Shown here piece after piece: positions 690-29,387 of a stretch of 64,000 nucleotides of DNA. The DNA is from an uncultured Gemmatimonadales bacterium (GTDB taxonomy: Bacteria > Gemmatimonadota > Gemmatimonadetes > JACCXV01 > JAHWKZ01), in contig CAZUIY010000341.1 in assembly GCA_964619975.1 (NCBI GenBank), positions 1,393 through 65,392 on the forward strand, read 5' to 3'. Within the stretch, counting starts at the first letter, position 1. Each line of letters begins with the position of its first letter. The notes beneath the pieces are model-generated. The model saw nothing but the letters and a program-made list of their open reading frames with translations. It was not told where the DNA came from and made no database searches. The position numbers were made by a program, and so were the translations under genes.

Positions 690-1217
690 ATGAGTGACAG
701 GGAGAGGGCCTTCGCCCTCAAGGATGCCTACGCGGAGACCTTCGAGGGCGGCTCGATGGCCTACGGGCACGAGGGCAAGACGCTCGACCTCGCTCGCCTC
801 GTCGGCGAGGACGTCAGCGTGGCCGAGCTGATCGACAGGCACGCCCAGCCGACGCCGCCCGGCTACAGCCCGCCCGGCTACGTCGTGACCAGCGACGAGC
901 TAGTGATCGTGGCGCTGGAGCGGAACGACATCTTCAAGCACGTCGCGGTGGCGACCGCGCGCGGCGGCGATGTCCCCGTGCCCGAGCCGGAGCCCGACCA
1001 CGCCCAGCAGGGCGGCGGCGAGCCGCCGGCCGGGGAGCCGCCCGCCGAGGTCAACCCCGACTCCCACAACCGCGACGAGCTGGTCGCGCTTGCGCTGGAC
1101 GAGGACGTGCTGACCGACGAGCACGGCACGGAGCTGGACTTCGACGAGGGCGGCTCGACGAAGGCCGAGCTGGCCGACGCGATCAACCACGAGCGGGCCG
1201 CGAGGGCCGCCGGCTAG
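690..1217 (+). CDS. hypothetical acidic protein (structural module)
   Basis: 175-aa ORF, GGAG-like SD upstream, acidic C-terminal half; function not recognisable. Confidence 0.4.
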   Translation: MSDRERAFALKDAYAETFEGGSMAYGHEGKTLDLARLVGEDVSVAELIDRHAQPTPPGYSPPGYVVTSDELVIVALERNDIFKHVAVATARGGDVPVPEPEPDHAQQGGGEPPAGEPPAEVNPDSHNRDELVALALDEDVLTDEHGTELDFDEGGSTKAELADAINHERAARAAG

Positions 1218-1260
1218 TCGGCCGGCGCACTCGGGGACACAAGAGGAAGGTGGCTTAGAC

Positions 1261-2562
1261 ATGCCGGGCATCGAGAGTCGCGTAGAGGCGGCGTGGTTCG
1301 CCAAGCAGGCGGCGAAGGGAGCGGCCGCTGCGGCCGCCGTCAAGCGAGGCCGAAAGGTCGCCGGCGACATGACCGTCGCGCGCGAGGACTCCAATCAGAA
1401 CTGGTCCGACGGCGAGCGGTTCGCCACCGCCGAGGACTACGTCAACACGATCGTCGGAAACGGCAACCCGACGCTCCAGGCCCAGCCGGGGATCGGCGCG
1501 TACCTGTTCTACCTGATGATGGGGCAGGAGACGGTGACCGCCGTCGCGGGGCCGGCGGGTCTCCGGGACCACGTCGCAACGCCGGCCAACACGGGCGCCT
1601 TCTGGGCGTCGTGGTGGAAGAAGGTCGGCCAGGTGGTCGGGCCGGTGCGGCAGCGCTTCGACGACTGCCGCATGACGTCGCTGCGCTTCGAGGCGTCGAG
1701 CGCGCAGAAGGTCGGGCAGCTGGTGCCGACCTGGACCAGCCTTGATCCCGGCATCGTGTACGACACCGACCCGGTGCAGGCCGAGGACGTCGATCGCGCG
1801 CTGCTGTACACCGAGGGCGAGGGCCGCTTCAAGATCAACGACGTGGTCTTCCGGGGCCACTCGTCGCTCGCCTTCACGATGAACGACGCCGCGACGCCGT
1901 GGTACGGCGACTCGGTCCGCCCGCACGACGTGGTGTTCGGGCAGTCGACCGTCGACCTGGAGGGCATCACCCTTCTGGTGGATCAGCAGGGGAAGGACTT
2001 CTACGACGAGCTGATCTACGGCATGATCAACCCTGCGGCCGGCACCCGTCCTCGGGTCGACATTCCGCTGATCGGGTCGTACGAGTTCGACCTGCGGCGC
2101 GGCACGGTCGTCGACCTGGAGGTGGTCGACGCGACGGGCGGAACGCTCGACCTGGACGTGGACGGCGAGGTCGCGGCGATCGACTTCGACGCCACGGCGG
2201 AGGAGGTCCAGGCCGCGATCGAGGGGCTGACGACGGTCCTGCCCGGCGACGTGCTCGCAACGGAGGGTCCGCTCGGGACCGCCCCGGTGCGGATCGTGTT
2301 CCTGCGGTCCGGTCGGGTCGTGACCGCCGACGACACGAACATCACGGGCGCCGGCGGCGAGGCGGCGACCGCGACGGACCGAGGCCACGAGAAGGGGTTC
2401 AAGGTCGAGTTCCCCGGCGTCAAGTGGAACCCCGACGCGGCGATCGCCGGCAACCCGGACGGCGGCGCGGTCGAGCTCGCGCTGGGCGGCCAGACCCGAA
2501 AGATCGCGGGCGAGCCGATCATCCGCACGACCGTCCGCACGTCGGACGCCGCCTACACCTAG
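1261..2562 (+). CDS. major tail protein (with C-terminal Ig-like domain)
   Basis: 433 aa, immediately upstream of the chaperone pair and tape measure; beta-rich C-terminal segment (DLEVVDATGGTLDLDVDGEVAAIDFDAT) typical of Ig-like decoration domains on actinophage major tail subunits. Confidence 0.55.
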   Translation: MPGIESRVEAAWFAKQAAKGAAAAAAVKRGRKVAGDMTVAREDSNQNWSDGERFATAEDYVNTIVGNGNPTLQAQPGIGAYLFYLMMGQETVTAVAGPAGLRDHVATPANTGAFWASWWKKVGQVVGPVRQRFDDCRMTSLRFEASSAQKVGQLVPTWTSLDPGIVYDTDPVQAEDVDRALLYTEGEGRFKINDVVFRGHSSLAFTMNDAATPWYGDSVRPHDVVFGQSTVDLEGITLLVDQQGKDFYDELIYGMINPAAGTRPRVDIPLIGSYEFDLRRGTVVDLEVVDATGGTLDLDVDGEVAAIDFDATAEEVQAAIEGLTTVLPGDVLATEGPLGTAPVRIVFLRSGRVVTADDTNITGAGGEAATATDRGHEKGFKVEFPGVKWNPDAAIAGNPDGGAVELALGGQTRKIAGEPIIRTTVRTSDAAYT

Positions 2563-2571
2563 GAGGCACGC

Positions 2572-3615
2572 ATGACCGATGCACTAGCACCCACGGAGGC
2601 CCCGAGCGCAGAGGTGCGCATCGGGGACAAGATCCACAAAATCAAGCCGTTCAAGGGGAGCAAGGGCGTTCGCGCCTTCGCGATCATCAGCCGCGTCAGC
2701 CGACACATCGGCGCGGTGATGGGCGCCATCGAGGAGTTCGAGCGCGAGTACCGGCAGCGGAACGACCTAACGATCACCCGCGACCTGTGCCGGTACCGCG
2801 TGGCGACGTGCCAGAACCGGATCGCGTCGCTAGAGCGCGACCTGGCCGACCTGGCGCCGGACAAGATCGACGAGAAGCGGGAGTCCCTGACCGCGCAGCT
2901 GGCCGAGGCCGTGGCCGCCGAAGAGTCCAAGCCCGAGCCGACCGAGCGGCGGACGACGCTTGAGCGTCGGCTGAAGGACCTCGACGACGCGCCTCGGGTG
3001 CGGGAGCACGTGCAGGTGCTCATCGCGGACGAGGAGGCGTCGATTCAGGACTGGCAGCGGATGCTGACCGGGGCGCTTGCGGACACCGACTCGATCACGG
3101 TCCCGAAGTCGCCCAGCGGGCAGCAGAAGTGGATGGCCGGGTTTCCGAAGGTCTGGGAGCTCGCCGAGGCCGAGGCCACGATGCTGCTGGGCCTGCTGCT
3201 GATCGAGGACGACGACCTCAAGGCGGCGCGCGACGAGAACCGGGCCGAGAAGGCCATCATGGACATGGGCGAGCAGGCGCTGGACGAGCTGGAGGTCGAC
3301 GAGGTGGGGGACCTGGTCGTGACCGCGGCCGAGTACGCCCTTCATCGCTACCGCCCTCGGATGGCTCGCCTGGGCGACAGGGTCGAGGCGCTTCAGGGGA
3401 CCCTCACGCCTTCCCAGGACGAGCCGACGGAGCGGGCGACGCAGGACCCGGTGCTGGGGCCGGACCGGAGGCAGCTGGAGCCGTCCATCGGATCGGTGGA
3501 GAGGACGACGTCCGACTCGCCGAGTGCCGAGTCGTCGACCGATTCGCCACCTCGTACGGATGGACCGCCGATCGAATCCTCCACGGCGAGTCCTGGGCCG
3601 ATCTCCTCGCCCTGA
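2572..3615 (+). CDS. tail assembly chaperone (G-like); the C-terminal about 70 codons of this ORF are probably not translated in this frame
   Basis: The N-terminus (IGDKIHKIKPFKGSKGVRAFAIISRV) resembles phage tail assembly chaperones. The gene sits directly before the tape measure. The tail of the ORF is S/P-rich low complexity. Confidence 0.55.
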   Translation: MTDALAPTEAPSAEVRIGDKIHKIKPFKGSKGVRAFAIISRVSRHIGAVMGAIEEFEREYRQRNDLTITRDLCRYRVATCQNRIASLERDLADLAPDKIDEKRESLTAQLAEAVAAEESKPEPTERRTTLERRLKDLDDAPRVREHVQVLIADEEASIQDWQRMLTGALADTDSITVPKSPSGQQKWMAGFPKVWELAEAEATMLLGLLLIEDDDLKAARDENRAEKAIMDMGEQALDELEVDEVGDLVVTAAEYALHRYRPRMARLGDRVEALQGTLTPSQDEPTERATQDPVLGPDRRQLEPSIGSVERTTSDSPSAESSTDSPPRTDGPPIESSTASPGPISSP

Positions 3616-3773
3616 CGGAGCTGATAGACGGACGCAACGGAGCCGGCGCGGTGGTCGACGAGTCCGATGGGGGACTTGAGACCGTCGCGGCGGCCGAGGG
3701 CGGCACGCCCGCGTGGCAACGGTCGGTAGTGGCCTCCGCGCGCCAGCGCGCCGCTACCACGGGAAGGAACTAG
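3129..3773 (+). CDS. probable -1 frameshift extension of the tail assembly chaperone (G-T-like product)
   Basis: Overlapping ORF in the -1 frame whose last about 90 codons (FATSYGWTADRILHGESWADLLALTELIDGR) look protein-like. It ends 11 nt before the tape measure start, the canonical G/G-T arrangement. No slippery site was pinpointed. Confidence 0.3.
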   Translation: MDGRVSEGLGARRGRGHDAAGPAADRGRRPQGGARREPGREGHHGHGRAGAGRAGGRRGGGPGRDRGRVRPSSLPPSDGSPGRQGRGASGDPHAFPGRADGAGDAGPGAGAGPEAAGAVHRIGGEDDVRLAECRVVDRFATSYGWTADRILHGESWADLLALTELIDGRNGAGAVVDESDGGLETVAAAEGGTPAWQRSVVASARQRAATTGRN

Positions 3774-3783
3774 GCAGGGCCAC

Positions 3784-6700
3784 GTGTTCGAGGTAGGAGC
3801 CATCCGGGCGCGACTGGGCGCCGACGTCGAGGAGCTTGGCTTTAAGCGCTACGACAAGCTGCACCAGTCGGCGCAGCGCCAGGCCAGCAGGCCCGTCGTG
3901 GCGACCCTCGGCGGCGCGCTGGAGGAGGGCGACTTCCGAAAGTACGAGCGCGAGGTGGCGGAGGCGCGCCGCGAGGCGACGACGCCCGTGGAGGTGACGC
4001 TGTCCGGCGACCTGGACAACGTCGTCTTCGGAAAGTACGACAAGGCGGTGTCGGGCGCGCGCCAGAAGGCGTCGAAGCCGGTCGAGGTGACGCTGGGGGC
4101 GGACCTAGACGACGGCGGGTTCGACGACTGGGAGGCGGAGCTCGCGAAGGCGCGCACCGAGTCCAAGGCGCCGGTCGAGGCCGAGCTGGGCGCCGACGTC
4201 AACCGACGCGGCTTCCGCGCCTACGAGCGCCACGTGCGCGAGGCCGAGCAGCTGGGCCGCGAGCGCGAGGCACTGAAGGCCAAGCTGGGCGCCGACGTCG
4301 ACGAGGCCGGGTTCCGCGCGTACCGGCGCGCCGTGCGCGGCGCGGAGGGCGACTCGCACCGGCTCGGGCGGGCCGTCAGCAACATGGGCCGCCGGATCGG
4401 CGACGCCATTCCGTCGGTGAACTTTCAGACCCGCATCCCGTTCTACCTAGTGACGGCGTTCGTAGCCGCGCTGGCGGCGGGCATCCCCGTGCTGGTCGCG
4501 TTCAGCGGTGCGCTTGGGCCGATTCTCGGGCAGCTTGCGGCCATTCCGGGACTGGCCACGATCGCCGGCGGCGCGCTCGTGACGGCCATGCTGGGGCTAA
4601 AGGGCGTAATCGGCACCGTGGGCGAGGCGTGGGAGATGGAGCAGACCGCAGCCTCTGACGCCGTGGACACGTCGCGCGCGGCCGAGGCGGCCGCCGAGTC
4701 CGTGCGGGGGGCGCAGGAGGCGGCGGCCGACACCGAGCGGGACGTGACGCGCGCCAGGCGCGAGCTGACCGAGGCGACCGAGGACCAGCGCGAGGAGCTG
4801 AGCCGGATGCGCCTGGAGGCCGAGGGCGCGGTGATCGCCGAGTCCGAGGCGGCGCAGGCGCTGCGGCGCGCCCGCCAGCAGCTGATCGCCGCCGAGACGG
4901 ACCCGCGATCGACAGCGCTCGACATTCGCGAGGCCGAGACGGCCATCGACCGCGCCCGCCTCGGGCTGCGCGAGGCGCGCGGGGAGCGCGCGGACCTAGA
5001 GCGAGAGGTCCAGGCGGCTGACCAGCAGGGGGTTCGCCGCTCCGACCGCGTGGTGGCCGCGAGGGAGCGGCTGGCGGACGCCGAGCGCGCCGCCGAGCGC
5101 GCCACCCGCCGGGTGTCGATCGCGGCGCGCGACGCGAACCGCACGCTGACCGACGCGAGCGGCGGCGCCGAGAAGTTCCAGGAGGAGATGGCGAAGCTGT
5201 CGCCCGCCGGCCAAAACTTCGTCCGCCTGATCCAAAATCGCTTCTTTCCGATGCTGCGCGGGCTTCGCGCGGAGGCGCAGGAGGGCCTGCTGCCGGGGCT
5301 GGGCGACGGGCTGGTTGCCGCGTCCGCGAACTTCCCGGTCATCGAGGACATGGTGCGGAACTACTCCGACGCCCTTGGCGACGCGGCGCGCGAGCAGGGA
5401 GAGCTGTTCGGCTCGCAGAACCAGGGAAGGGACATGGCGACGATCTTCGGCTTCGGCGAGACGCTGATTCGGCGCTCGTCGCACGCGACCGCGGACTGGA
5501 CGCGCGGACTCACGCACCTGATGGTCGCGGCCGAGCCCCTGTACGACTGGCTGGGGCGGATCAACATGCGCCTGGCGGACTCGTTCGAGAGCTGGGCCGA
5601 GGGCGGTCGCCAGTCCGGCAGGCTGGAGCGCTTCTTCCGCGTCGCGACCAAGAACACGGAGCTGTTCGTGGGCACGCTCTGGGACACCGGGCGGGCGCTC
5701 ATCAACATCGGCGGCATCGGGCGGCGGGTCTGGGGCCAGGACATGCTCGGCGGGATCAGAGACGTGGCGCGCGAGTTTCGCGAGTGGACCGAGTCGGTTG
5801 AGGGGGAGCGCTCGATCGAGCGCTACTTCGTGCGCTGGCGTCGGCGATGGGAGGCGATAACCGAGTACATCGGAAGCGCGGTGAGCGAGTACCGTCGGCT
5901 GAAGCGACAGGGCATGACGACCACGGAGGCGCTTGCCACCATCTTGACCGAGCGACTGGGCGAGGCGTTCGGCGAGGTGGTCGCGATCGCCGTGAGTCAG
6001 GGTCCGCGCGTGGCGCGCGGGTTCGCCGAGGGCTTTCTGAAGGCGAACGTGTGGGGCAAGCTCATCATCGGTGCCTGGCTCATCAGCAAGCTCGGCGGCG
6101 GCCGCGCGATCAACGCGATAGGCAGCAGGATCGGTGGCCGCGTGGCCGACAGCTTCGTCGGCAGCATGATCGCCGGCGTCGAGGCGAAGCAGGGGGCGTT
6201 GCGAGGCGTGGGGCGCCGGGCCGGACGGTGGATCGGCCGCGGGCTGCTGATCGGCATCGCCGCCGGTGCCGTGCTCGGCTACGACGAGGTCAAGGACGAG
6301 CTGGCCGACGTCGCGTCCCAGATAAACGACGCCCTCTTCGGCGACAAGGTGGGCGGCTTCCTGTCGGACATTCGGAAGCGGCTCGACCCGACCGGCGGCG
6401 GCTACGGCGGCAGGGACGGCGGCGAGGTCACCCCGCGCGGCATCCAGCGGTTCGCGCTCGGCGGCCCCGTCATGCCGCTCCCGCCCGGCGAGGACACCTG
6501 GGCCGCGCTCCGCTACGGCGAGTTCGTCATGAAGCGCGAAGCGGTGCAGCGGGTGGGCCTGGCCCGGCTGCGCGCCATGAACGAGGGCCAGGGCGGCAGC
6601 GGCGCGGTCGACGCCGTGGCGGGAGACCTGATGACGATCGCGGCGGCTGGCGCGGCGGCGGGGCAGTCGGCCGCGGAAGCGCTCACCGAGGGCCTGGCCG

Positions 6701-22406: not shown

Positions 22407-22555
22407 GCGCGCTGGCGGTGGTGCTGGTCGTGCAGGTGGCGACGTTCGTGGCGCTGGGCGCGGCGTTCTTGGCCGAGGGCCAGTGGCGGCTGGGCACCGC
22501 GCAGCTGCTGCTGGCCGCCGTGCAGGCGGTCGTGTACGGCGGGAGGATGGCGTGA
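22403..22555 (+). CDS. small membrane peptide
   Basis: 50 codons, TTG overlapping the upstream TGA; hydrophobic (LAVVLVVQVATFVALGAAFLA); GTGA-coupled to dam. Confidence 0.25.
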   Translation: MSALAVVLVVQVATFVALGAAFLAEGQWRLGTAQLLLAAVQAVVYGGRMA

Positions 22556-23430
22556 GGACCCCGCTGACGTACTACGGGGGGAAGCAGGCGTTGGCGCGCC
22601 AGATCGTCCCGCTGTTCCCGCCGCACCGCTCGTACCTTGAGCCGTTCGCCGGCGGCGCGGCGGTGCTGTTCGCGAAGGCTCCGGCCGAGCGCGAGACGCT
22701 GAACGACCTGGACGGTCAGGTGATGCGCTTCTGGCGAGCGCTTCGCGAGCGCCCCGACGAGCTGGCGGCGGCGGTGGCGGCGACCCCCTACGGCCGTCAG
22801 GAGTGGCGGGTCGCCGAGGCGGTGCGCAAGGGCCGCGCGCCGATGCCCGAGGACGACGTTGAGGCCGCGCGGCTGCTGCTGGCGTGCATCGACCAGTCGT
22901 TCTCGCGCTCGTCGGACGGGTGGTCGGTGCCGTGCATCGGCGACGGACGAGGTCGGTGGCAGCCCGGCTCGTGGGCGAACCTGCCCCCGAAGCTGGTCGC
23001 GGCGGCCGAGCGGCTGCGCAACGTGGCGCTGGAGAGCGGCGACGCCTGCGACCTGATTCCGCGCTGGGACGAGCCCGACGCGCTGCTGTACGTGGACCCG
23101 CCGTACACGGGCGAGCACCGCCGACGCGGGAAGCACGGGTCGGGCGGGATGAACGGCTACCTCGTCGACGACGACGGCAAGCTGTGGGGCCGGCTGGTCG
23201 AGGCGCTGCTGGGCCTGGAGCGCGCGGCGGTGGTCCTGTCCGGCTACCCGTGCGAGGAGGTCGGCGCGCTCGAAGGAGCGGGGTGGCGCCGCGTGCCGCT
23301 GAGGATGAGGCGCACCGTGCAGGAGCGCGGTGGCGACGCCCTGCCGATGGCCCCCGAGGTCGTGTGGCTGAACGAGCGGGTGCCCGACGCCCCGCAGACG
23401 CTGTTCGAGGAGGACGCCCATGAGTGGTGA
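22552..23430 (+). CDS. dam: DNA N6-adenine methyltransferase, Dam (D12 class) family
   Basis: Motifs YYGGK, EPFAGGAAVLF and DPPY (YVDPPYTGEH); GTG start overlapping the upstream stop. Confidence 0.85.
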   Translation: MRTPLTYYGGKQALARQIVPLFPPHRSYLEPFAGGAAVLFAKAPAERETLNDLDGQVMRFWRALRERPDELAAAVAATPYGRQEWRVAEAVRKGRAPMPEDDVEAARLLLACIDQSFSRSSDGWSVPCIGDGRGRWQPGSWANLPPKLVAAAERLRNVALESGDACDLIPRWDEPDALLYVDPPYTGEHRRRGKHGSGGMNGYLVDDDGKLWGRLVEALLGLERAAVVLSGYPCEEVGALEGAGWRRVPLRMRRTVQERGGDALPMAPEVVWLNERVPDAPQTLFEEDAHEW

Positions 23431-23954: not shown

Positions 23955-24404
23955 ATGATTGACCTCGATCGCGCGCTCCACGAGGCGCGCGACAAGCTGG
24001 ACAACGGCTCGCCGGCGAGCGCCGTGGAGGTGTTGCGCGACCTGACCGAGGCGGTGCAGAGCCGACGCGCCTCGGCGCGCCACCACGCCGACCGCATCCT
24101 GCGCGCCAGTGACGGCGACGAGGAGTGCCGCGACACGGTGGTCGACGACGCGGTGGCGCTCGCGGAGGGCGTGGCGATGCTGCCGCGCGTGGAGCTGATG
24201 GGCGAGGTTGAGGTGGCGGTCGCGGCGGGAGTCGCCGTGCGGTCGACGCCGCTGGCGGCTGTTCACTACGAGCTTGACCAAATCGCAAATCTTCCCGACC
24301 CTGTCGCGACGCTGGTCGCCGGACGGGTGTGGCTGGCGGACGACATACGGGCGCTGGTGCGCGAGCGCCTGAAGACCAACAACGACGAGAAGGGAACGAG
24401 CTGA
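23955..24404 (+). CDS. hypothetical protein
   Basis: 149-aa ORF downstream of P1 with a good SD. Confidence 0.45.
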   Translation: MIDLDRALHEARDKLDNGSPASAVEVLRDLTEAVQSRRASARHHADRILRASDGDEECRDTVVDDAVALAEGVAMLPRVELMGEVEVAVAAGVAVRSTPLAAVHYELDQIANLPDPVATLVAGRVWLADDIRALVRERLKTNNDEKGTS

Positions 24405-25363
24405 TGGCCGGACAGAGGACGACCCTGTCGCTGGGCGGGGTGGCGGCAGAGGTGTCGCTGGTGAAGATGAGCGGCAAGCCGAAGGACGCGCAGCACGAGG
24501 TGAGGTGGCCGGACCCGCCGGTCGGCGCGCCCGAGGGCGAGGGCGACCCGGTCGGCGATCTGGCCATGTCGTCGTTCGAGACCAAGGGCGACGCCGGCAC
24601 GAGCGGGCCGGGTGCCCCTCCGCCGGTCGACGTCGGCAGGGGCGACCCGCTCGGGGGGACCGAGCCGGAGGACCCTGCCGCCGGCTTCGCCGCGGCCGTG
24701 GGCGTGGGCGGCTCGGTCGAGCCGCCCCCCGAGCCGGTCAAGCCGATGCACGGCGTGACGCTGGAGTCCGGCAAGTGGGTGGACCTCACGGACCGCCTGG
24801 AGCAGATCGACGAGGCGTGCAAGCTGCCGGGCATGGAGGTCGTCTCCACGGTGCCGAGCGCGTCGATCCCGCGCGAGCGGGTGGTGGCCGCCAGCTGGGT
24901 GGCCAGCACGGACCCGCGCGCGGCGCGGGTGCTCGCCCTCCTGTGGCGCGGCCTCGACTCCACGACCCGCGTGGCGGCGGTGCGCTGGACGAAGCGGACG
25001 AACCAGGCGCTCGGCGTGCTCGTGCCCCGCACGCTGCCGGGCGGCAAGCGCGCCCTGGCCCTGCTGGAGATGGAGTGGGCCGAGAACATGCGGCCCGCGC
25101 CAGCATCGGCCACCGGCCCGATGGACGCGGACGTGTCGGACGCGGAGATGGACGCGGCGAAGCGGCTGGTCGAGGCGCTGGCCGGGAAGCCGTCGGAGCT
25201 CGACGAGCTGCGCGACGAGCGGCTGGCCAAGCGCGCGGAGCTGCTCAACCTGGCCCGCGAGGGCAAGGTCGAGGGGTACGTGGCGCCGGAGCCGCCAGCC
25301 GACGCCGAGCCGGTCGAGGACGTGGTCGCGCGCTGGGAGGCGCAGGCGGCCGCGCGATCCTGA
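24404..25363 (+). CDS. ku: Ku-like DNA end-binding protein (with about 100-aa Gly/Pro-rich insertion)
   Basis: The N-terminus (TLSLGGVAAEVSLVKM) resembles the first Ku beta-strand (SIAFGLVNVPVKVY). Core similarity to Mt-Ku across GKWVDLTDRLEQI ... ALLEMEWAENMR (Ku: LLWPDEIR) is judged from memory only. Confidence 0.45.
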   Translation: MAGQRTTLSLGGVAAEVSLVKMSGKPKDAQHEVRWPDPPVGAPEGEGDPVGDLAMSSFETKGDAGTSGPGAPPPVDVGRGDPLGGTEPEDPAAGFAAAVGVGGSVEPPPEPVKPMHGVTLESGKWVDLTDRLEQIDEACKLPGMEVVSTVPSASIPRERVVAASWVASTDPRAARVLALLWRGLDSTTRVAAVRWTKRTNQALGVLVPRTLPGGKRALALLEMEWAENMRPAPASATGPMDADVSDAEMDAAKRLVEALAGKPSELDELRDERLAKRAELLNLAREGKVEGYVAPEPPADAEPVEDVVARWEAQAAARS

Positions 25364-25366
25364 CGT

Positions 25367-25621
25367 GTGCGCGGCGGTAAGCGCCCCCTGCGCGGAGGCC
25401 CCCTCGACGGGGCAGAGTCGGCCGCCGGAGGCAGCCAGAAGTGGTTCGACCGAGGGGGCCGCGCTCACGCTCGCGCGGCCCCCGATCGACACCTCTACGT
25501 CCGACACGGCGACGAGTGGCGGTGGGCCGGCTTCGGCTATCGCGAGTGCGGGGGATGCGGGGCCGTGCTCAAGCCGAGCGAGGGGCGTCGCGCGGAGGCG
25601 TGTCCGCTCTGCGGAGCGTAG
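25367..25621 (+). CDS. small zinc-ribbon protein, or first repeat unit of the downstream multi-zinc-ribbon gene separated by a frame break
   Basis: 84 aa ending YRECGGCGAVLKPSEGRRAEACPLCGA (CxxC-16-CxxC). This is the same unit architecture as the repeats in the next ORF, which is in the +1 frame with no start codon of its own. Confidence 0.4.
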   Translation: MRGGKRPLRGGPLDGAESAAGGSQKWFDRGGRAHARAAPDRHLYVRHGDEWRWAGFGYRECGGCGAVLKPSEGRRAEACPLCGA

Positions 25622-26900
25622 GTGCGCCACGTGCCGGGAGGTCAAGCCGGTGGCCGAGTACGCGGGGCCGACCGCGCGGCGCTGCATCGCGTGCACGCCG
25701 CCGCCGGGCCGCCAGTGCGCGACCTGTGGCGAGCGGAAGGCGAGCGACGCCTTCGCGCCGCGCGCCCGCAGGTGTCAGGAGTGTCGGGCCCACCCGCCCC
25801 AGCCGCCGCCGAGGGCCTGCCGGCGGTGCGGTGCCGAGCACCCGGTGGCGGACTACCGGCGGGGCGGGACGCTGGGGCCCTGCTGCGCCGGCACGCCGCC
25901 GCCGTCGGCCACTCGGCCTCGGGCGTGCCTGCGCTGCCACGAGGTGAAGGCGAATCACGACTTTCCGTGGGGGGACAAGTCGCCGAACCGCAACCCGTCG
26001 AAGACGCCGCGCATGGGCCGGTACCGCCGCCGGTCGGGCGTCTGCCAAGAGTGCTGGGATCGCGAGGCTGCCGAGCGCGCCGAGGCCGCGCGGGTGGTGG
26101 CGGAGCGCCAGCGGGCGTACAGGTGGTTGGAGGACGGCGTGTTCGTGCGTCGCTGCCGGGCGTGCGACGAGGTGAAGGTGGAGGCCGAGGGCTACTACAC
26201 GAACGGGGCGCGTCGCAAGGACGGCACGCCTCGCTATCAGGGCAAGTGCAAGGCGTGCCTAATGGCCCACAAGCGGGAGCAGCTTCGCGAGCAGATGAAG
26301 GACCCGCACCTCGCGGCCAAGATCATCGAGGGCCGGCGCGAACGTCGTCAGCGCTGGCGGAAGAACAATCCTGAAAAGTATCACGCCGCGCAGCGCCGCC
26401 ACCGCGAGCGCGTCATGGCCGATCCGGAGCGCCGGGCGCGCCACCTTGAGAACCGGCGCATAGCGGGTCGCCTGCGGCGCGAGCAGGAAGGGCACGCCCT
26501 CGCCGTGAGTCCGACGCGGACGACGGCGCCCGCGGGGCCGGAGCGTGGGCGTCGGTGGCTGCCGTTGGCACCGCTTCTCGACCTGGTGCAGGGCCGCCTT
26601 CGGCAGGCGCTGGTCACCGATGCTGGCCTCGTGGTCTCGGCGCAGAAGGGGATGCCTACGCGGCGGTTGGTGTGCGAGGACCTTGGAATCAGCGCCCGCA
26701 CGCTGAGTCGGTGGGAGAGCGAGGGCGGCAAGGTCGAGCACGACACGGCCGATAGGGTGCTGACGCGCGCCGGCCTGCTTTGGCATGACGTGTGGTTCTG
26801 CGACGAGCACCCGCACCACCATGAGGGCTGCGAGGCATGCGCGGGCGCGGAGGCCGCCGAGGACGCCTGGGAGGGCGCGGGGTGCCTGGTCGCCGCCTGA
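25622..26900 (+). CDS. protein of about 7 tandem zinc-ribbon (CxxC-x15-20-CxxC) units with C-terminal HTH; start unresolved
   Basis: Repeats RRCATCREVKP..RRCIAC / QCATCGERK..RRCQEC / CRRCGAEHP..PCCAG / CLRCHEVK..CQEC / CRACDEVK..CKAC. HTH at LVCEDLGISARTLSRWESEG. The frame carries no ATG/GTG/TTG until after the first CxxC. Confidence 0.5.
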
Positions 26901-27403
26901 CGCGCCGCGAGGGCCGGGCGCTGCTGGTGGGCGAGTCGCCGTGTCGGGGGGCCAGGCCCGGCGGCCGCGCGCTCGACGGGCCGGCGGGCGATCGGCTGGC
27001 GAGCTACCTCGGCGCGCTTCCCGGCTACATCCACTGCGACAGGCACGCGCTGCTGGAGGAGTTCGACACGGTGAACCTGCTGGGCCGGTGGCCGGGCAGC
27101 CAGGGCAAGGGCGCGGCCTGGTCGCCCACGAAGGCTAGGAGGGCGGCGGGACGACTTCCCCTCCGGGGCGTGGTGGTCCTGCTGGGCCAGCGCGTCGCCA
27201 ACGCCTATCAGCTAGGCGGCCTGTGCTGGGCGCACTGGCTGCATACCCCGGCCGGCGCTTGGGTCACGGCGATTCCCCATCCGTCGGGCGTGAACCGCCT
27301 ATACAACGATGAGGCCATGCGTGCGCTGGTGGCCGAGGTGCTGCACGGCGCGCGCGTCGCCGCCCGGGACGCCCGCCCGCCCGCGCTCGTTCGCCGCAAA
27401 TAG
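26879..27403 (+). CDS. uracil-DNA glycosylase superfamily protein (family 4/5-like)
   Basis: N-terminal GESPCRGARPGGRALDGPAGDRL (compare GEAPG...G.PF.G.AG..L) and C-terminal HPSG motif (IPHPSGVNRLYN). Confidence 0.5.
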   Translation, partial: GVPGRRLTRREGRALLVGESPCRGARPGGRALDGPAGDRLASYLGALPGYIHCDRHALLEEFDTVNLLGRWPGSQGKGAAWSPTKARRAAGRLPLRGVVVLLGQRVANAYQLGGLCWAHWLHTPAGAWVTAIPHPSGVNRLYNDEAMRALVAEVLHGARVAARDARPPALVRRK

Positions 27404-27425
27404 CGGGGCCGTCGGGCATCGTCGT

Positions 27426-27471
27426 TGCGGCGTGCGGGTGGTGGTCTGTAGCCTCGACGCCGTACCCGATT
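27426..27471 (+). promoter_or_regulatory. promoter P2 of the conserved family (-35 TTGCGG, 18-bp spacer, -10 TAGCCT, leader GTACCCGAT)
   Basis: Directly visible; SD GAGGAT, then GTG 27486. Confidence 0.6.
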
Positions 27472-27485
27472 TTGAGGATGGCTCA

Positions 27486-28728
27486 GTGCATGAACTTCCC
27501 AGCCTGCTTACCGGACCGCACGATGCGCGGCTCGACGATCCACCCCGCGTCCTGTCGGTCTGCTCGGGCGTCGGCGGCATGGACCTCGGGTTCCATCGCG
27601 CGGGCTTCCGCACGGTCGGGCTGTGCGAGTGGGAGCCGTGGCGGCGGAAGGTCCTCGCGCGCCACTGGGGCGACGGCGTCCCGATCTATCCCGACCTCGC
27701 GGCGCTCGCCGATCGCGCCGAGCGGGACCCCGACGACCTACTCGCCGAGCTCGGGGGTCGCGTAGATGTCCTCATCGGCGGTACCCCCTGCCAAGACCTC
27801 AGCCACGCCGGCAAGCGAGCCGGACTCGACGGCGAGCGCTCCGGACTCTTCTGGAGTTACTGCCGACTCCGAAACGCCCTCGGCATCGAGTGGTGCGTCT
27901 GGGAGAACGTGGCAGGGGCTCAGACCTCCAACCAGGGACTGGACTTCGCATCGGTCCTGGGCGCCTTCGTGGGAGCAACCGTCGCTGTTCCCTCCGCCGG
28001 ATGGGGAGGCGCTGGTGTGGCAGCCGGGCCGTGGGGGGGCTGCGTCTGGCGACGCCTCAACGCTCAACACTTCGGAGTCCCCCAGCGTCGGCGTCGCGTC
28101 TTCGTTGTCGGACGCCTTGGAGGCCCTTGTCCACCCGCGGTTCTCATTGAGCGCGAAGGCGTGCGCGGGAATCCTCAAGCGGGCGGTGCGGCGCGGCCGG
28201 GACCTGCCTGGGCCGCTGCGGCTCGCGCTGGAGGGCCAGGCCGGACCGAACTGGCAGGAGGTGGACGACCTGGAGGCCGAGATGGCGCTGGAGGCGCTGA
28301 CGCTGGACGTGGACCCGCCCCAGCCATCCGAGCGAGCGCCGGAAAGAACGCCTACAGCCCCGGACACTCCGGAGGCGACGAGGCAGTGTTCGCCGTCGCC
28401 GGAGCCCTCGACGCCAGCGACGGGGGAGCCGACGACAACGACGCCAGAGCCGGACGAATCGTCACAGGTGGCGCCCAGCCTGACGATGAGGTACGGGGCC
28501 AGCGGCGGCAACGATCTTCAACAGCCGAACGCGCTGGTGGAGGACCCGACGATCGGGTTTCACATCCACGAGAGGATGGACGTGCCGAGGGACGACGCGC
28601 AGGCTCCGACGCTGATGAAGTCGGCGAGTCCGGGGGCGAACGCGCCGGGCGGCCTGCGGAAGCTGACTCCGACAGAGTGCGAGCGCCTGATGGGCTGGCC
28701 GGACGGCTGGACGGTGCTGCTGAAGTAG
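27486..28728 (+). CDS. DNA (cytosine-5)-methyltransferase with interrupted reading frame: motifs I-VIII in frame 0, motif IX in frame +1
   Basis: Motif I CSGVGGMDLGF; motif IV GTPCQDLSHAGKR; motif VI ENV; motif VIII FGVPQRRRRVFVVG (all in the frame of 27486). Motif IX RKLTPTECERLMGWPDGWT sits in the +1 frame and ends at the stop at 28728. Candidate shift sites are 28100-28135 or the G4 run at about 28495-28498. Confidence 0.6.
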
Positions 28729-28793
28729 AGGCGTACACGGAGCGAACCCGCGACGGCGTGAGCACTCCCGAGCGGGTGGACCTTCCGTGCCTG

Positions 28794-29387
28794 ATGGGCC
28801 ACACGGGGAAGGGCGGCGGCGGTCACGATCACTTCATTCGTCAGCCCGCTATGCCCGTCAGCCTGCGGGGCCGCGAGGGCGGCGCGACAGCCGAGGTCGC
28901 CGCCGACGACGCCTCGCCGTCACTTCGGGGCAGCGGCGGCGGCGGCAGTCGTCAGCACGTCTTGGTCGGCTCGGACGAGGCTACGCACACGCTGACCGCC
29001 GAGGGCCACGACGCGAGCGAGGACGGCACGGGCCGAGGCGCGCCGATCGTGCTCGCGGAGAACCAGCGCGGCGAGCTCCGCACGCCGGACGTGGTGCCGT
29101 TGCTTAGCGGGCAGGGCGGGGGGAAGCCGGGCCAGGGGCGCCCGGTGACGTGGAGCAATCTGAGCAACGGCGGGGCGAACGACGACCAGGCGGCGACGCT
29201 CGACACGTCGCACGGAGGGGGTCAGGCGCTCATGGCGGGCGCGGCCGAGGGGGCGGCGTGCGGTCATGATCCCAAGCCGGATGGGCAGCGCTACGCGGCG
29301 TGCGGCGATGGGGTGGCGGCCCCGGTCGCGCACTGGATTGGACTGCGCCTCGGGCCGGCGATCGCGGAGGCGCGGAGTGATGGGTGA
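28794..29387 (+). CDS. methyltransferase C-terminal-like fragment (DASEDGTGRG block, ENQRGELR, degenerate motif IX, motif X-like)
   Basis: Frame-0 ORF after the motif-IX stop. Contains HTLTAEGHDASEDGTGRGAPIVLAENQRGELR, GQGGGKPGQGRPV and C-terminal QRYAACGDGVAAPVAHWIGLRL (motif X with GN changed to GD). May be the displaced 3-prime part of the same MTase gene. Confidence 0.4.
   Translation: MGHTGKGGGGHDHFIRQPAMPVSLRGREGGATAEVAADDASPSLRGSGGGGSRQHVLVGSDEATHTLTAEGHDASEDGTGRGAPIVLAENQRGELRTPDVVPLLSGQGGGKPGQGRPVTWSNLSNGGANDDQAATLDTSHGGGQALMAGAAEGAACGHDPKPDGQRYAACGDGVAAPVAHWIGLRLGPAIAEARSDG

Follow-up and report, generated by a model that had tools for sequence, protein, structure and literature searches.

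How can one cytosine-5 (C5) DNA methyltransferase locus carry its conserved motifs in two reading frames? The question is raised by a 64,000-nucleotide (nt) stretch of DNA, hereafter the window, from an uncultured Gemmatimonadales bacterium (contig CAZUIY010000341.1), where at positions 27486-29387 motifs I, IV, VI and VIII are read in one frame (frame 0) and motif IX in another (frame +1). A previous sequence-only reading had left three answers standing: a frameshifted and rearranged gene, two polypeptides, or programmed frameshifting. We consider it probable that the locus consists of two overlapping genes on the same strand, alpha and beta, specifying a heteromeric C5-methyltransferase that resembles M.EcoHK31I. 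Alpha would supply the catalytic large domain, made of motifs I-VIII and a C-terminal motif X helix joined by a low-complexity linker and recognition-type blocks. Beta would be translated from its own GGAGG-GTG start inside alpha and encode a small helical module and, past a disordered linker, two recognition-type blocks and motif IX, after which it stops. By analogy with M.EcoHK31I, which has been characterised experimentally, alpha and beta probably assemble into a single active enzyme, in which beta would provide the core of the small DNA-recognition domain and bind alpha through its N-terminal helical module.

Frame 0 is a single uninterrupted open frame from 27309 to 29387, and the GTG at 27486 aligns with the N-termini of two homologues, P0001 and P0003. 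What had been taken for a second open reading frame (ORF) at 28794-29387 is merely the continuation of this frame. Frame +1 is open from 27766 to 28728 and terminates with LRKLTPTECERLMGWPDGWTVLLK, then a stop. The GC content by codon position identifies frame 0 as the coding phase at 27540-28000 and again at 28800-29340, and frame +1 at 28080-28720, where third-position GC of frame 0 drops to 0.45-0.57 and its first-position GC rises to about 0.9. The coding phase along the locus thus switches from 0 to +1 and back to 0, and the earlier observation that third-position GC supports coding in frame +1 holds over 28080-28720. The features of the locus are the following.

27486-29387, forward strand: alpha gene, frame 0, 633 amino acids (aa), large C5-methyltransferase polypeptide (open frame, Pfam, AlphaFold2 (AF2), Foldseek).
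27561-27593, forward strand: motif I (CSGVGGMDLGF), S-adenosylmethionine binding, frame 0.
27777-27803, forward strand: motif IV (GGTPCQDLS), with the catalytic cysteine, frame 0.
27900-27917, forward strand: motif VI (WENVAG), frame 0.
28004-28008, forward strand: GGAGG, Shine-Dalgarno (SD)-like, 6 nt 5' of the beta start codon; the same GGAGG and GTG pair is present in the relative L003.
28015-28728, forward strand: beta gene, frame +1, 237 aa, wholly nested in alpha (identity with P0121, third-position GC phase, homologues).
28083-28112, forward strand: motif VIII (QRRRRVFVVG), frame 0; the frame +1 reading of the same bases is ...SPSVGVASSLSD.
28102-28305, forward strand: N-terminal conserved helical module of beta (SLSDALE..FSLSAKACAGILKRAVRRGRDLPGPLRLALE..AGPNWQEVDDLEAEMALEALTL; invariant alignment residues, AF2, constraint).
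28161-28781, forward strand: alpha linker, the Gly/Ala/Arg/Asp-rich frame-0 reading of beta-coding DNA (composition, AF2 predicted local distance difference test (pLDDT) 30-43).
28312-28467, forward strand: Ser/Thr/Pro-rich linker of beta, spanning the alpha block at 28401-28463 (AF2 pLDDT about 50).
28401-28463, forward strand: alpha block GALDASDGGADDNDARAGRIV, frame 0, matching the ALD..GG.DDN.AQAG..V block of P0001, P0005, P0009 and P0016.
28471-28641, forward strand: recognition-type blocks of beta (APSLTMRYGASGGNDLQQPNALV; IGFHIHERMDVPRDDAQAPTLMKSASPGAN), conserved in beta of P0122, P0123 and L003.
28654-28713, forward strand: motif IX (LRKLTPTECERLMGWPDGWT), frame +1, followed by the beta stop TAG at 28726-28728 (homologue comparison, PHROG, M.HhaI match).
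28782-29237, forward strand: C-terminal recognition-type blocks of alpha (..PSLRGSGGGGSRQHVLV; THTLTAEGHDASEDGTGRGAPIV; AENQRGELR..GGGKPGQGRPV; AATLDTSHGGGQALMA), with frame-0 third-position GC of 0.83-0.93.
29268-29351, forward strand: motif X region (DPKPDGQRYAACGDGVAAPVAHWIGLRL), with GD replacing GN across the whole subfamily (tblastn, AF2 helix).

Along the DNA, structured segments alternate between the two chains: motifs I-VIII of alpha (27486-28160), the helical module of beta (28102-28305), the alpha block (28401-28463), the beta blocks with motif IX (28471-28713), and the alpha blocks with motif X (28782-29351). The linker of each chain overlies a structured block of the other. The alpha linker is broken only by the block at 28401-28463, and its frame-0 third-position GC is 0.45-0.68.

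Concerning alpha, PF00145 matches it with an E-value of 8.6e-30 over profile positions 2-161 only, and its TIGR00675 score (99.2 bits) is just short of the cut-off (100.65) because only half of the profile is present. Its N-terminal part contains motifs I, IV, VI and VIII of the C5-methyltransferase core, all in frame 0 as originally described. Motif IX is absent from alpha according to both Pfam and a motif scan of frame 0, where we saw no trace of the degenerate IX-like stretch that had been proposed; the core therefore does not share one polypeptide with both IX and X, the former lying in frame +1 and the latter in frame 0. The AF2 model of alpha is confident at residues 20-225 (pLDDT 84-98) and at a motif X helix at residues 600-632 (91-93 over 610-630), and nearly everything between has a pLDDT below 50. 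A Foldseek search with the confident part recovered M.HaeIII with an E-value of 1.6e-11, as well as M.HhaI and DNMT1. The large domain of C5 methylases consists of motifs I-VIII plus X, as in M.HhaI, and the confidently modelled part of alpha is predicted to correspond to this domain. The motif-X-like C-terminus with GD in place of GN was correctly recognized, at 29268-29351: it aligns by tblastn with motif X of the homologues P0159 and P0183, which aligns in turn with motif X of DNMT3 and M.HhaI.

Beta is 100% identical over its 237 aa to a database protein (P0121, from NCBI and Logan) starting at GTG 28015, and the beta peptide has 106 database homologues. In other high-GC relatives, an ATG located 30-36 nt further 5' replaces the GGAGG-GTG start. 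The alternative ATG at 27766 was set aside as the beta start because, in L006, a stop closes frame +1 downstream of the corresponding ATG. The GTG start also requires a particular glycine codon in alpha, GGT (GGT-GTG, window 28014-28019). GGT is expected to be uncommon as a glycine codon at such GC content, and it is present at this site in six of ten high-GC relatives (the equivalent sites include L003, L004, L006, L010 and L012).

Motif IX is read in frame +1 as RKLTPTECERLMGWPDGWT at 28657-28713. Its position and the stop that follows (TAG 28726-28728) are as first reported; significance by Pfam alone is not reached (17 bits, E-value 0.004, cut-off 22), and its reality rests on PHROG DNA-methyltransferase hits (E-value 3e-8), a match to motif IX of M.HhaI, and near-invariance among homologues. 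We also compared column entropy by codon position, counted in the motif's own frame, between copies of motif IX that are out of frame relative to motif VIII and copies that are in frame. The values are 7.7 / 5.5 / 28.9 for the former (35 distinct sequences) and 6.4 / 4.1 / 28.9 for the latter (52 copies), which indicates that selection at the protein level acts alike on out-of-frame and in-frame motif IX.

The dual-frame layout is not particular to the window. P0001-P0010, single long ORFs from independent metagenomes and 45-75% identical, all contain a peptide like PDADGVRAPDGMAGRVDG, which is the -1 reading of motif IX. In the DNA of six loci within L002-L009, frame 0 is open end to end in all six, and frame +1 encodes SSLSD[IV]LE..VHPRFFLS.RAAAGILRRAE.RGR.LP ... 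VRRLTPTECERLMGWPDGWT, the stop coming no more than a few codons after motif IX in five loci and 17 codons after it in L002. The same organization (frame 0 open, +1 helix ... VRRLTPTECERLMGWPDGWT, stop) is found in L054, L055, L089, L094 and L095. In total, 12 or more assemblies, independent and from different samples, show it, and in most relatives the beta stop lies 2-5 codons past motif IX. Searches of the locus DNA against phage records returned no close relative, only short matches over conserved motifs. When full-length relatives were aligned with the window by gapped tblastn, the alignments passed through the low-complexity linker in frame 0 without separating the frames, and block-level and codon-phase analyses were used in their place.

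These comparisons also show that the blocks move between chains. The AENQRGE..GGGKPGQG block belongs to beta in L006, L008, P0137 and P0165 and to alpha in the window, L004 and L009, and the block A.SLT.R.G...D...LV, read in frame +1 in the window, is read in frame 0 in L003. The first of the two beta recognition-type blocks at 28471-28641 corresponds to a block that L003 has in frame 0. Sizes vary too, alpha having 383 aa and beta about 198 aa in L006. The sequence-only reading had assumed that such blocks normally precede motif IX, but AENQRGE..GGGKPGQG follows it in several relatives (P0007, P0020) and precedes it in others; the Gly/Asp-rich segments that had looked like repeat expansion are conserved family blocks.

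Could the two frames simply be the debris of a former single-frame methylase, that is, a pseudogene or an indel artefact of sequencing or assembly? The motifs are formally out of frame, the locus has homopolymer runs (G7 at 28033, G5 at 28422 and 28632), and some relatives, such as L072, look damaged. However, the layout recurs at 45-75% identity in independent assemblies, coding composition and substitution signatures are kept in both frames, the expected stops are missing, the beta stop keeps its place just past motif IX in most relatives, and no signal was seen at the indel sites that had been suggested. We find this explanation hardly credible. As for L072 itself (IMG/VR UViG_3300037484_000565, around 2400-2600), it has a stop inside motif VIII and carries motifs I and IV in different frames; it is probably a genuinely decayed copy, unlike the conserved dual-frame loci.

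A profile of beta retrieved 80 viral loci and 80 loci in bacterial genomes, with hosts among Actinomycetota, Bacillota, Pseudomonadota, Bacteroidota, Spirochaetota, Cyanobacteria and Verrucomicrobiota and a locus GC content of 0.35-0.74. The distance from the Q of motif VIII to the helix motif GIL.RA..RG[RK].LP is 85-94 nt in essentially all of the 142 relatives examined. With the frame of motifs IV and VIII taken as frame 0, the helix motif falls in frame +1 in 82 of 83 viral and metagenomic loci, the remaining one having an assembly gap, and in 59 of 59 genomic loci; no locus has it in frame 0. Most loci read motif IX in frame 0, and about 25 read it in frame +1.

Three architectures can be distinguished. 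In the majority, the nested ORF consists of the helix only and alpha keeps motifs IX and X (e.g. L010/P0020 and L011/P0016). In a second, AquI-like type (L053, L100, L101, L160, whose GC is 0.35, and P0159), alpha stops past motif VIII and the +1 ORF runs through the target recognition domain (TRD), IX and X. The window represents the third, EcoHK31I-like type. If both frames are translated, as we propose, single indels would convert one architecture into another.

The family appears to be large. At E-values up to 1e-3 the beta profile matches 27,589 cluster representatives among 1.84 billion, and 12,030 at up to 1e-10; none of ten long matches that were checked has an in-frame catalytic core. 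The +1 helix is present in 139 annotated phage records, and among the rows listed only a methylase or a hypothetical protein is annotated there. Examples of frame +1 peptide stretches are ...FSLSAKACAGILK... in the window and ...YFLSSKACAGILR... in phage P1. The dmt gene of P1 has 165 open codons in frame +1 (L093 2198-2695), across motifs VI-VIII and the helix, with SD-preceded ATGs at 2216 and 2495. The P1 segment is found in 517 of 5,426 complete E. coli genomes, annotated as methylase only among the matches listed.

The P1 gene shows a further peculiarity. In the isolate analyzed (OP279344), dmt spans 877-3918 and encodes 1013 aa, and motif IV is interrupted (GGTPC/FTAGHMVL ... GAVVHN/CQAFSIAG) by an insert of about 335 aa, around 1100-2110, whose boundaries look like those of an intein. 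Protein splicing would be required to bring the catalytic Cys-Gln pair back together.

On balance, and by somewhat better than an even chance, we favor the view that a large cross-phylum family of phage and prophage C5-methyltransferases, including P1 Dmt, has a so far unrecognised +1 gene across motifs VI-VIII encoding a small helical subunit needed by the enzyme. Indels would shuttle recognition blocks, IX and X between the chains, giving three interconvertible architectures, and M.EcoHK31I would be one sampled member of a general design. In the literature searched, we found no description of the nested frame as a feature of the methylase family, nor of an internal gene in P1 dmt.

Statistical support for the nested gene comes from several directions. 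In all 57 non-redundant loci (less than 85% identity), frame +1 is open between ENV of motif VI and the helix end, with a mean probability of 0.18 in shuffles that preserve the alpha protein and its codon composition, and of 0.0005-0.1 at GC below 0.47. The summed log10 P of -60 overstates the significance because the loci are phylogenetically non-independent. In the 42 loci with GC below 0.58, we counted no +1 stops from ENV to motif VIII (58.8 expected) and none from VIII to the helix end (34.3 expected), to be compared with 67 observed versus 86 expected in the upstream flank and 95 versus 89 in the downstream flank. No comparable stop depletion was seen in frame +2 in any of these regions.

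Synonymous constraint, measured as codon identity among pairs with the same alpha residue, tells the same story along the gene. From 0.29-0.40 over motifs I-V, codon identity rises to 0.45-0.55 between VI and VIII, reaches 0.61-0.88 from VFVVG through the helix (0.86-0.88 over the helix), and is 0.35 thereafter. Up to motif VIII the most variable codon phase is position 3 of frame 0 (1.6-1.9 bits). Over the helix it is position 1 of frame 0, i.e. position 3 of frame +1 (1.1-1.6 bits), and position 3 of frame 0 falls to 0.56-0.8. Past the helix the variable phase reverts to that of frame 0. A conserved RNA structure was rejected as the source of the constraint because the latter has a clean +1 codon periodicity. 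The pattern indicates purifying selection on both frames.

Start signals are also conserved. Of 42 low-GC loci, 28 have a +1 ORF that opens 14 codons before ENV, and 26 have a conserved ATG 10 codons before ENV with an SD-like site ahead of it. The openness of frame +1, the constraint, the codon phase and the start sites argue for independent initiation near motif VI and against a frameshift after motif VIII.

The latter possibility, by ribosomal frameshifting or transcriptional slippage, would yield one chain passing from frame 0 to +1 after motif VIII and back after motif IX. Blocks joined in DNA order do resemble a canonical long methylase such as the in-frame P0020, and the blocks of the two frames barely overlap. 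Nevertheless, up to four shifts would be needed to join every structured block, and we know of no precedent for two to four efficient shifts within one gene. No slippery X XXY YYZ heptamer is present at either junction, and junction positions vary among relatives. Two conserved segments overlap, 'SLSDxLE' in frame +1 and 'VFVVGxLGG' in frame 0; the variable position of the latter is occupied by R, H, Y or C, always with a codon that begins with C or T and so keeps the +1 Asp. Frame +1 is stop-free from motif VI, about 60 codons 5' of any useful shift site, and in the window as in relatives it has its own start codon and SD-like site. Programmed frameshifting, which the sequence-only reading had entertained, is thus disfavored, and we judge it quite unlikely.

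A separate issue is whether alpha is one chain. When beta synonymous codons were shuffled from the helix end to the end of motif IX and frame 0 was scored as open or closed, it stayed open with P = 0.061 for the window, and in 0.2% and 2% of shuffles for L094 and L095. Frame-0 stops over the beta-coding region are absent from 12 of 13 relatives with the same layout, for about 17 expected in total. The exception is L174 (the locus of P0123), where four stops interrupt frame 0 and the C-terminal part was called as an ORF of its own, beginning at an ATG within the motif IX DNA; the corresponding sequence in the window is CTG GAC, with no ATG. Covalent continuity of alpha is therefore usual and not obligatory, which argues that the enzyme can assemble from pieces.

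Three or more polypeptides might then be made, the C-terminal module (around 28794-29387) being also, or instead, a separate protein and the frame-0 linker incidental. Besides L174, this would fit the P0122 locus, where the gene caller gave a separate downstream ORF overlapping the end of beta, the ATG present at 28794 in the window, the splitting of the Mycobacterium phage Omega methylase into gp127 and gp128, and the known ability of C5 methylase fragments to complement each other (PMC3404938). But frame 0 of the window has no stop, so any ribosome starting at 27486 reads to 29387, continuity is statistically kept in 12 of the 13 relatives, and the L174-type ATG is missing. We regard this arrangement as unlikely for the window. 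The proposal of two polypeptides made by the sequence-only reading is supported, with the correction that the second protein is the nested +1 ORF and not the stretch at 28794-29387.

Several split or interrupted relatives deserve mention. In Omega (L001), gp127 (688-1431, motifs I-VIII) and gp128 (1438-1992, motif IX onward) share one frame with a stop between them, and the C-terminal half of this methylase is the closest phage-record match to window 28850-29350. The C-terminal ORF of L174 (3744-5060), with the blocks and motif X, also has a Cys-rich HNH-like insert (CDQCG...CEECG...HHRDGN...N...H) that the window lacks. In Mycobacterium phage Schatzie (L092, MK524521) the methylase is annotated only as a misc_feature (333-1856) with an HNH endonuclease gene inside it (833-1450) and the note 'coding region not determined; unable to determine intron boundaries', which points to an intron or a homing element within this member of the methylase family.

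The structure of beta bears on another alternative. AF2 models its helical module with confidence (pLDDT 86-93, helices at 47-60, 66-76 and 85-97) and motif IX moderately (about 75), with a disordered middle. A Foldseek search of the beta model against the PDB gave nothing below an E-value of 3.8; sequence searches of solved structures with the beta profiles matched motifs IX and X and found nothing for the helical module; and neither the helical part of beta nor the P1 nested peptide matches a Pfam, PHROG or NCBIfam model. Beta, or its helical module, might accordingly be thought an independent overprinted protein, such as a regulator or anti-defence factor, with alpha working without motif IX, all the more as the +1 ORF of most relatives is the helical module only and their alpha has IX and X in frame. 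Yet the module is fused to IX, or to IX and X, in the window and about 20 other loci, and these motifs are essential to the enzyme; alpha here lacks motif IX entirely; and N-terminal deletion of M.EcoHK31I beta weakens alpha binding (PMC2836561). An independent protein thus seems to us very improbable, and the helical module may rather be the alpha-binding element.

The proposal of two overlapping genes for one enzyme has to be set against several points that weigh on the other side. Frame-0 continuity of the window taken alone is weak (P = 0.06), and L174 splits alpha into separate ORFs. About 370 residues of alpha and 110 of beta are predicted by AF2 to be disordered, and motif X carries Asp where canonical enzymes carry Asn. 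The beta start varies in the high-GC subgroup (GTG at -153, ATG at -183/-189, unclear in L002 and L009). Finally, the translation of beta and the alpha-beta complex are what we infer, here and in every relative examined, from observations of another kind: the frame layout, its conservation, purifying selection on two frames and independent start signals. Together with a large ORF that has motifs I-VIII and X but not IX, and a small motif-IX ORF wholly inside it on the same strand in another frame, which is the M.EcoHK31I organization, these observations make two overlapping genes the probable answer in our view.

The surroundings of the locus are phage-like, with a GC content of 0.72: the methylase locus follows genes for an HNH endonuclease, an HTH_36 protein, a phage zinc-finger protein and a weakly UDG-like protein. 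A D12-class N6-adenine methylase (PF02086, E-value 1.5e-18) lies at 22483-23427, 4 kb 5' of the locus, so that the phage carries at least two orphan methylases. A Ku homologue (PF02735) is encoded at 24329-25360, a few genes 5' of the methylase, and this synteny is conserved in three relatives (L002 1-515, L174 79-924, and the P0122 locus); some actinophages are known to encode Ku. The 511-aa product of an ORF at 25365-26900 contains numerous CxxC pairs, arranged as repeated C..C...C..C units, is rich in Arg over its C-terminal half, and matches nothing in Pfam or PHROG. On the 3' side, the ATG of the next gene (29380) overlaps the alpha stop (29380-29387, ATGGGTGA), which suggests translational coupling of alpha with its 99-aa product, for which no family match was found. 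No restriction enzyme is evident beside the methylase locus, pointing to an orphan enzyme with an anti-restriction role (for general background, see PMC12707154). The enzyme may therefore protect phage DNA, shielding it from host restriction.

Gene finders forbid long same-strand overlaps, and the call made at such loci is consequently one long ORF containing a nonsense linker, a set of fragments, or a frameshifted pseudogene. If our reading is true, a required small subunit would alter the prediction and reconstitution of the activity and specificity of phage orphan methylases, and would be dropped when a recoded synthetic gene is expressed. The locus would also add a rare, statistically well supported long overlapping gene pair in bacteria and phages, and offer a mechanism by which protein modules hop between two chains via frameshifts. 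Natural heterodimeric methylases serve as scaffolds for targeted methylation (PMC2836561), and the family would offer thousands of variants of them.

Among known systems, the closest parallel is M.EcoHK31I (E. coli HK31, YGGCCR), as likened by its published description. Its alpha chain has motifs I-VIII, a TRD and X, and its beta chain has motif IX and is encoded within alpha in another frame; activity needs both polypeptides, and N-terminal deletions of beta weaken the association with alpha (PMC2836561; PMC3404938). Motif partition and nesting are the same in the window. M.EcoHK31I, however, is part of a restriction-modification pair, whereas the window enzyme is an orphan in a high-GC phage-like region, with a far longer alpha (633 aa) in which about 200 aa form a disordered linker. 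If the figures in the plasmid names pET3a-M38 and pET3a-C23 can be read as masses, the M.EcoHK31I chains might be of about 38 and 23 kDa, which would be close to those of shorter relatives such as L006. In the literature searched, M.EcoHK31I is treated as an oddity and not as a member of a large family.

M.AquI of Agmenellum quadruplicatum is a C5-methyltransferase split in the variable region, whose two polypeptides assemble (PMC3404938). Its partition (I-VIII, then IX-X) is shared by L053, L100, L101, L160 and P0159, with a +1 ORF comprising helix, TRD, IX and X. The window differs from it, as the small subunit of M.AquI has both IX and X, whereas here motif X is in the alpha frame and alpha runs past motif VIII. 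P1 Dmt and the prophage orphan C5-methyltransferases (PHROG 116 / PF00145) have a homologous catalytic domain and the same +1 ORF as the window, but they read motifs IX and X in the same frame as the catalytic domain, and their nested ORF is the helical module only. The spanin genes Rz/Rz1 of phage lambda provide a more distant parallel: one gene is embedded in the +1 frame of the other on the same strand, and the products bind into one functional complex. The embedding is alike, but proteins and function are unrelated, and Rz1 is not part of the same enzyme fold as its partner.

Lastly, the orphan C5-methyltransferases of Bacillus phages (SPR, phi3T type) have several short tandem recognition modules between motifs VIII and IX (PMC12707154). 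The recognition-type blocks of the window are many, short and conserved, and have low AF2 confidence. In the multispecific Bacillus enzymes all modules belong to one polypeptide, whereas in the window many short candidate blocks of the 'TL...V' type are distributed over two chains.

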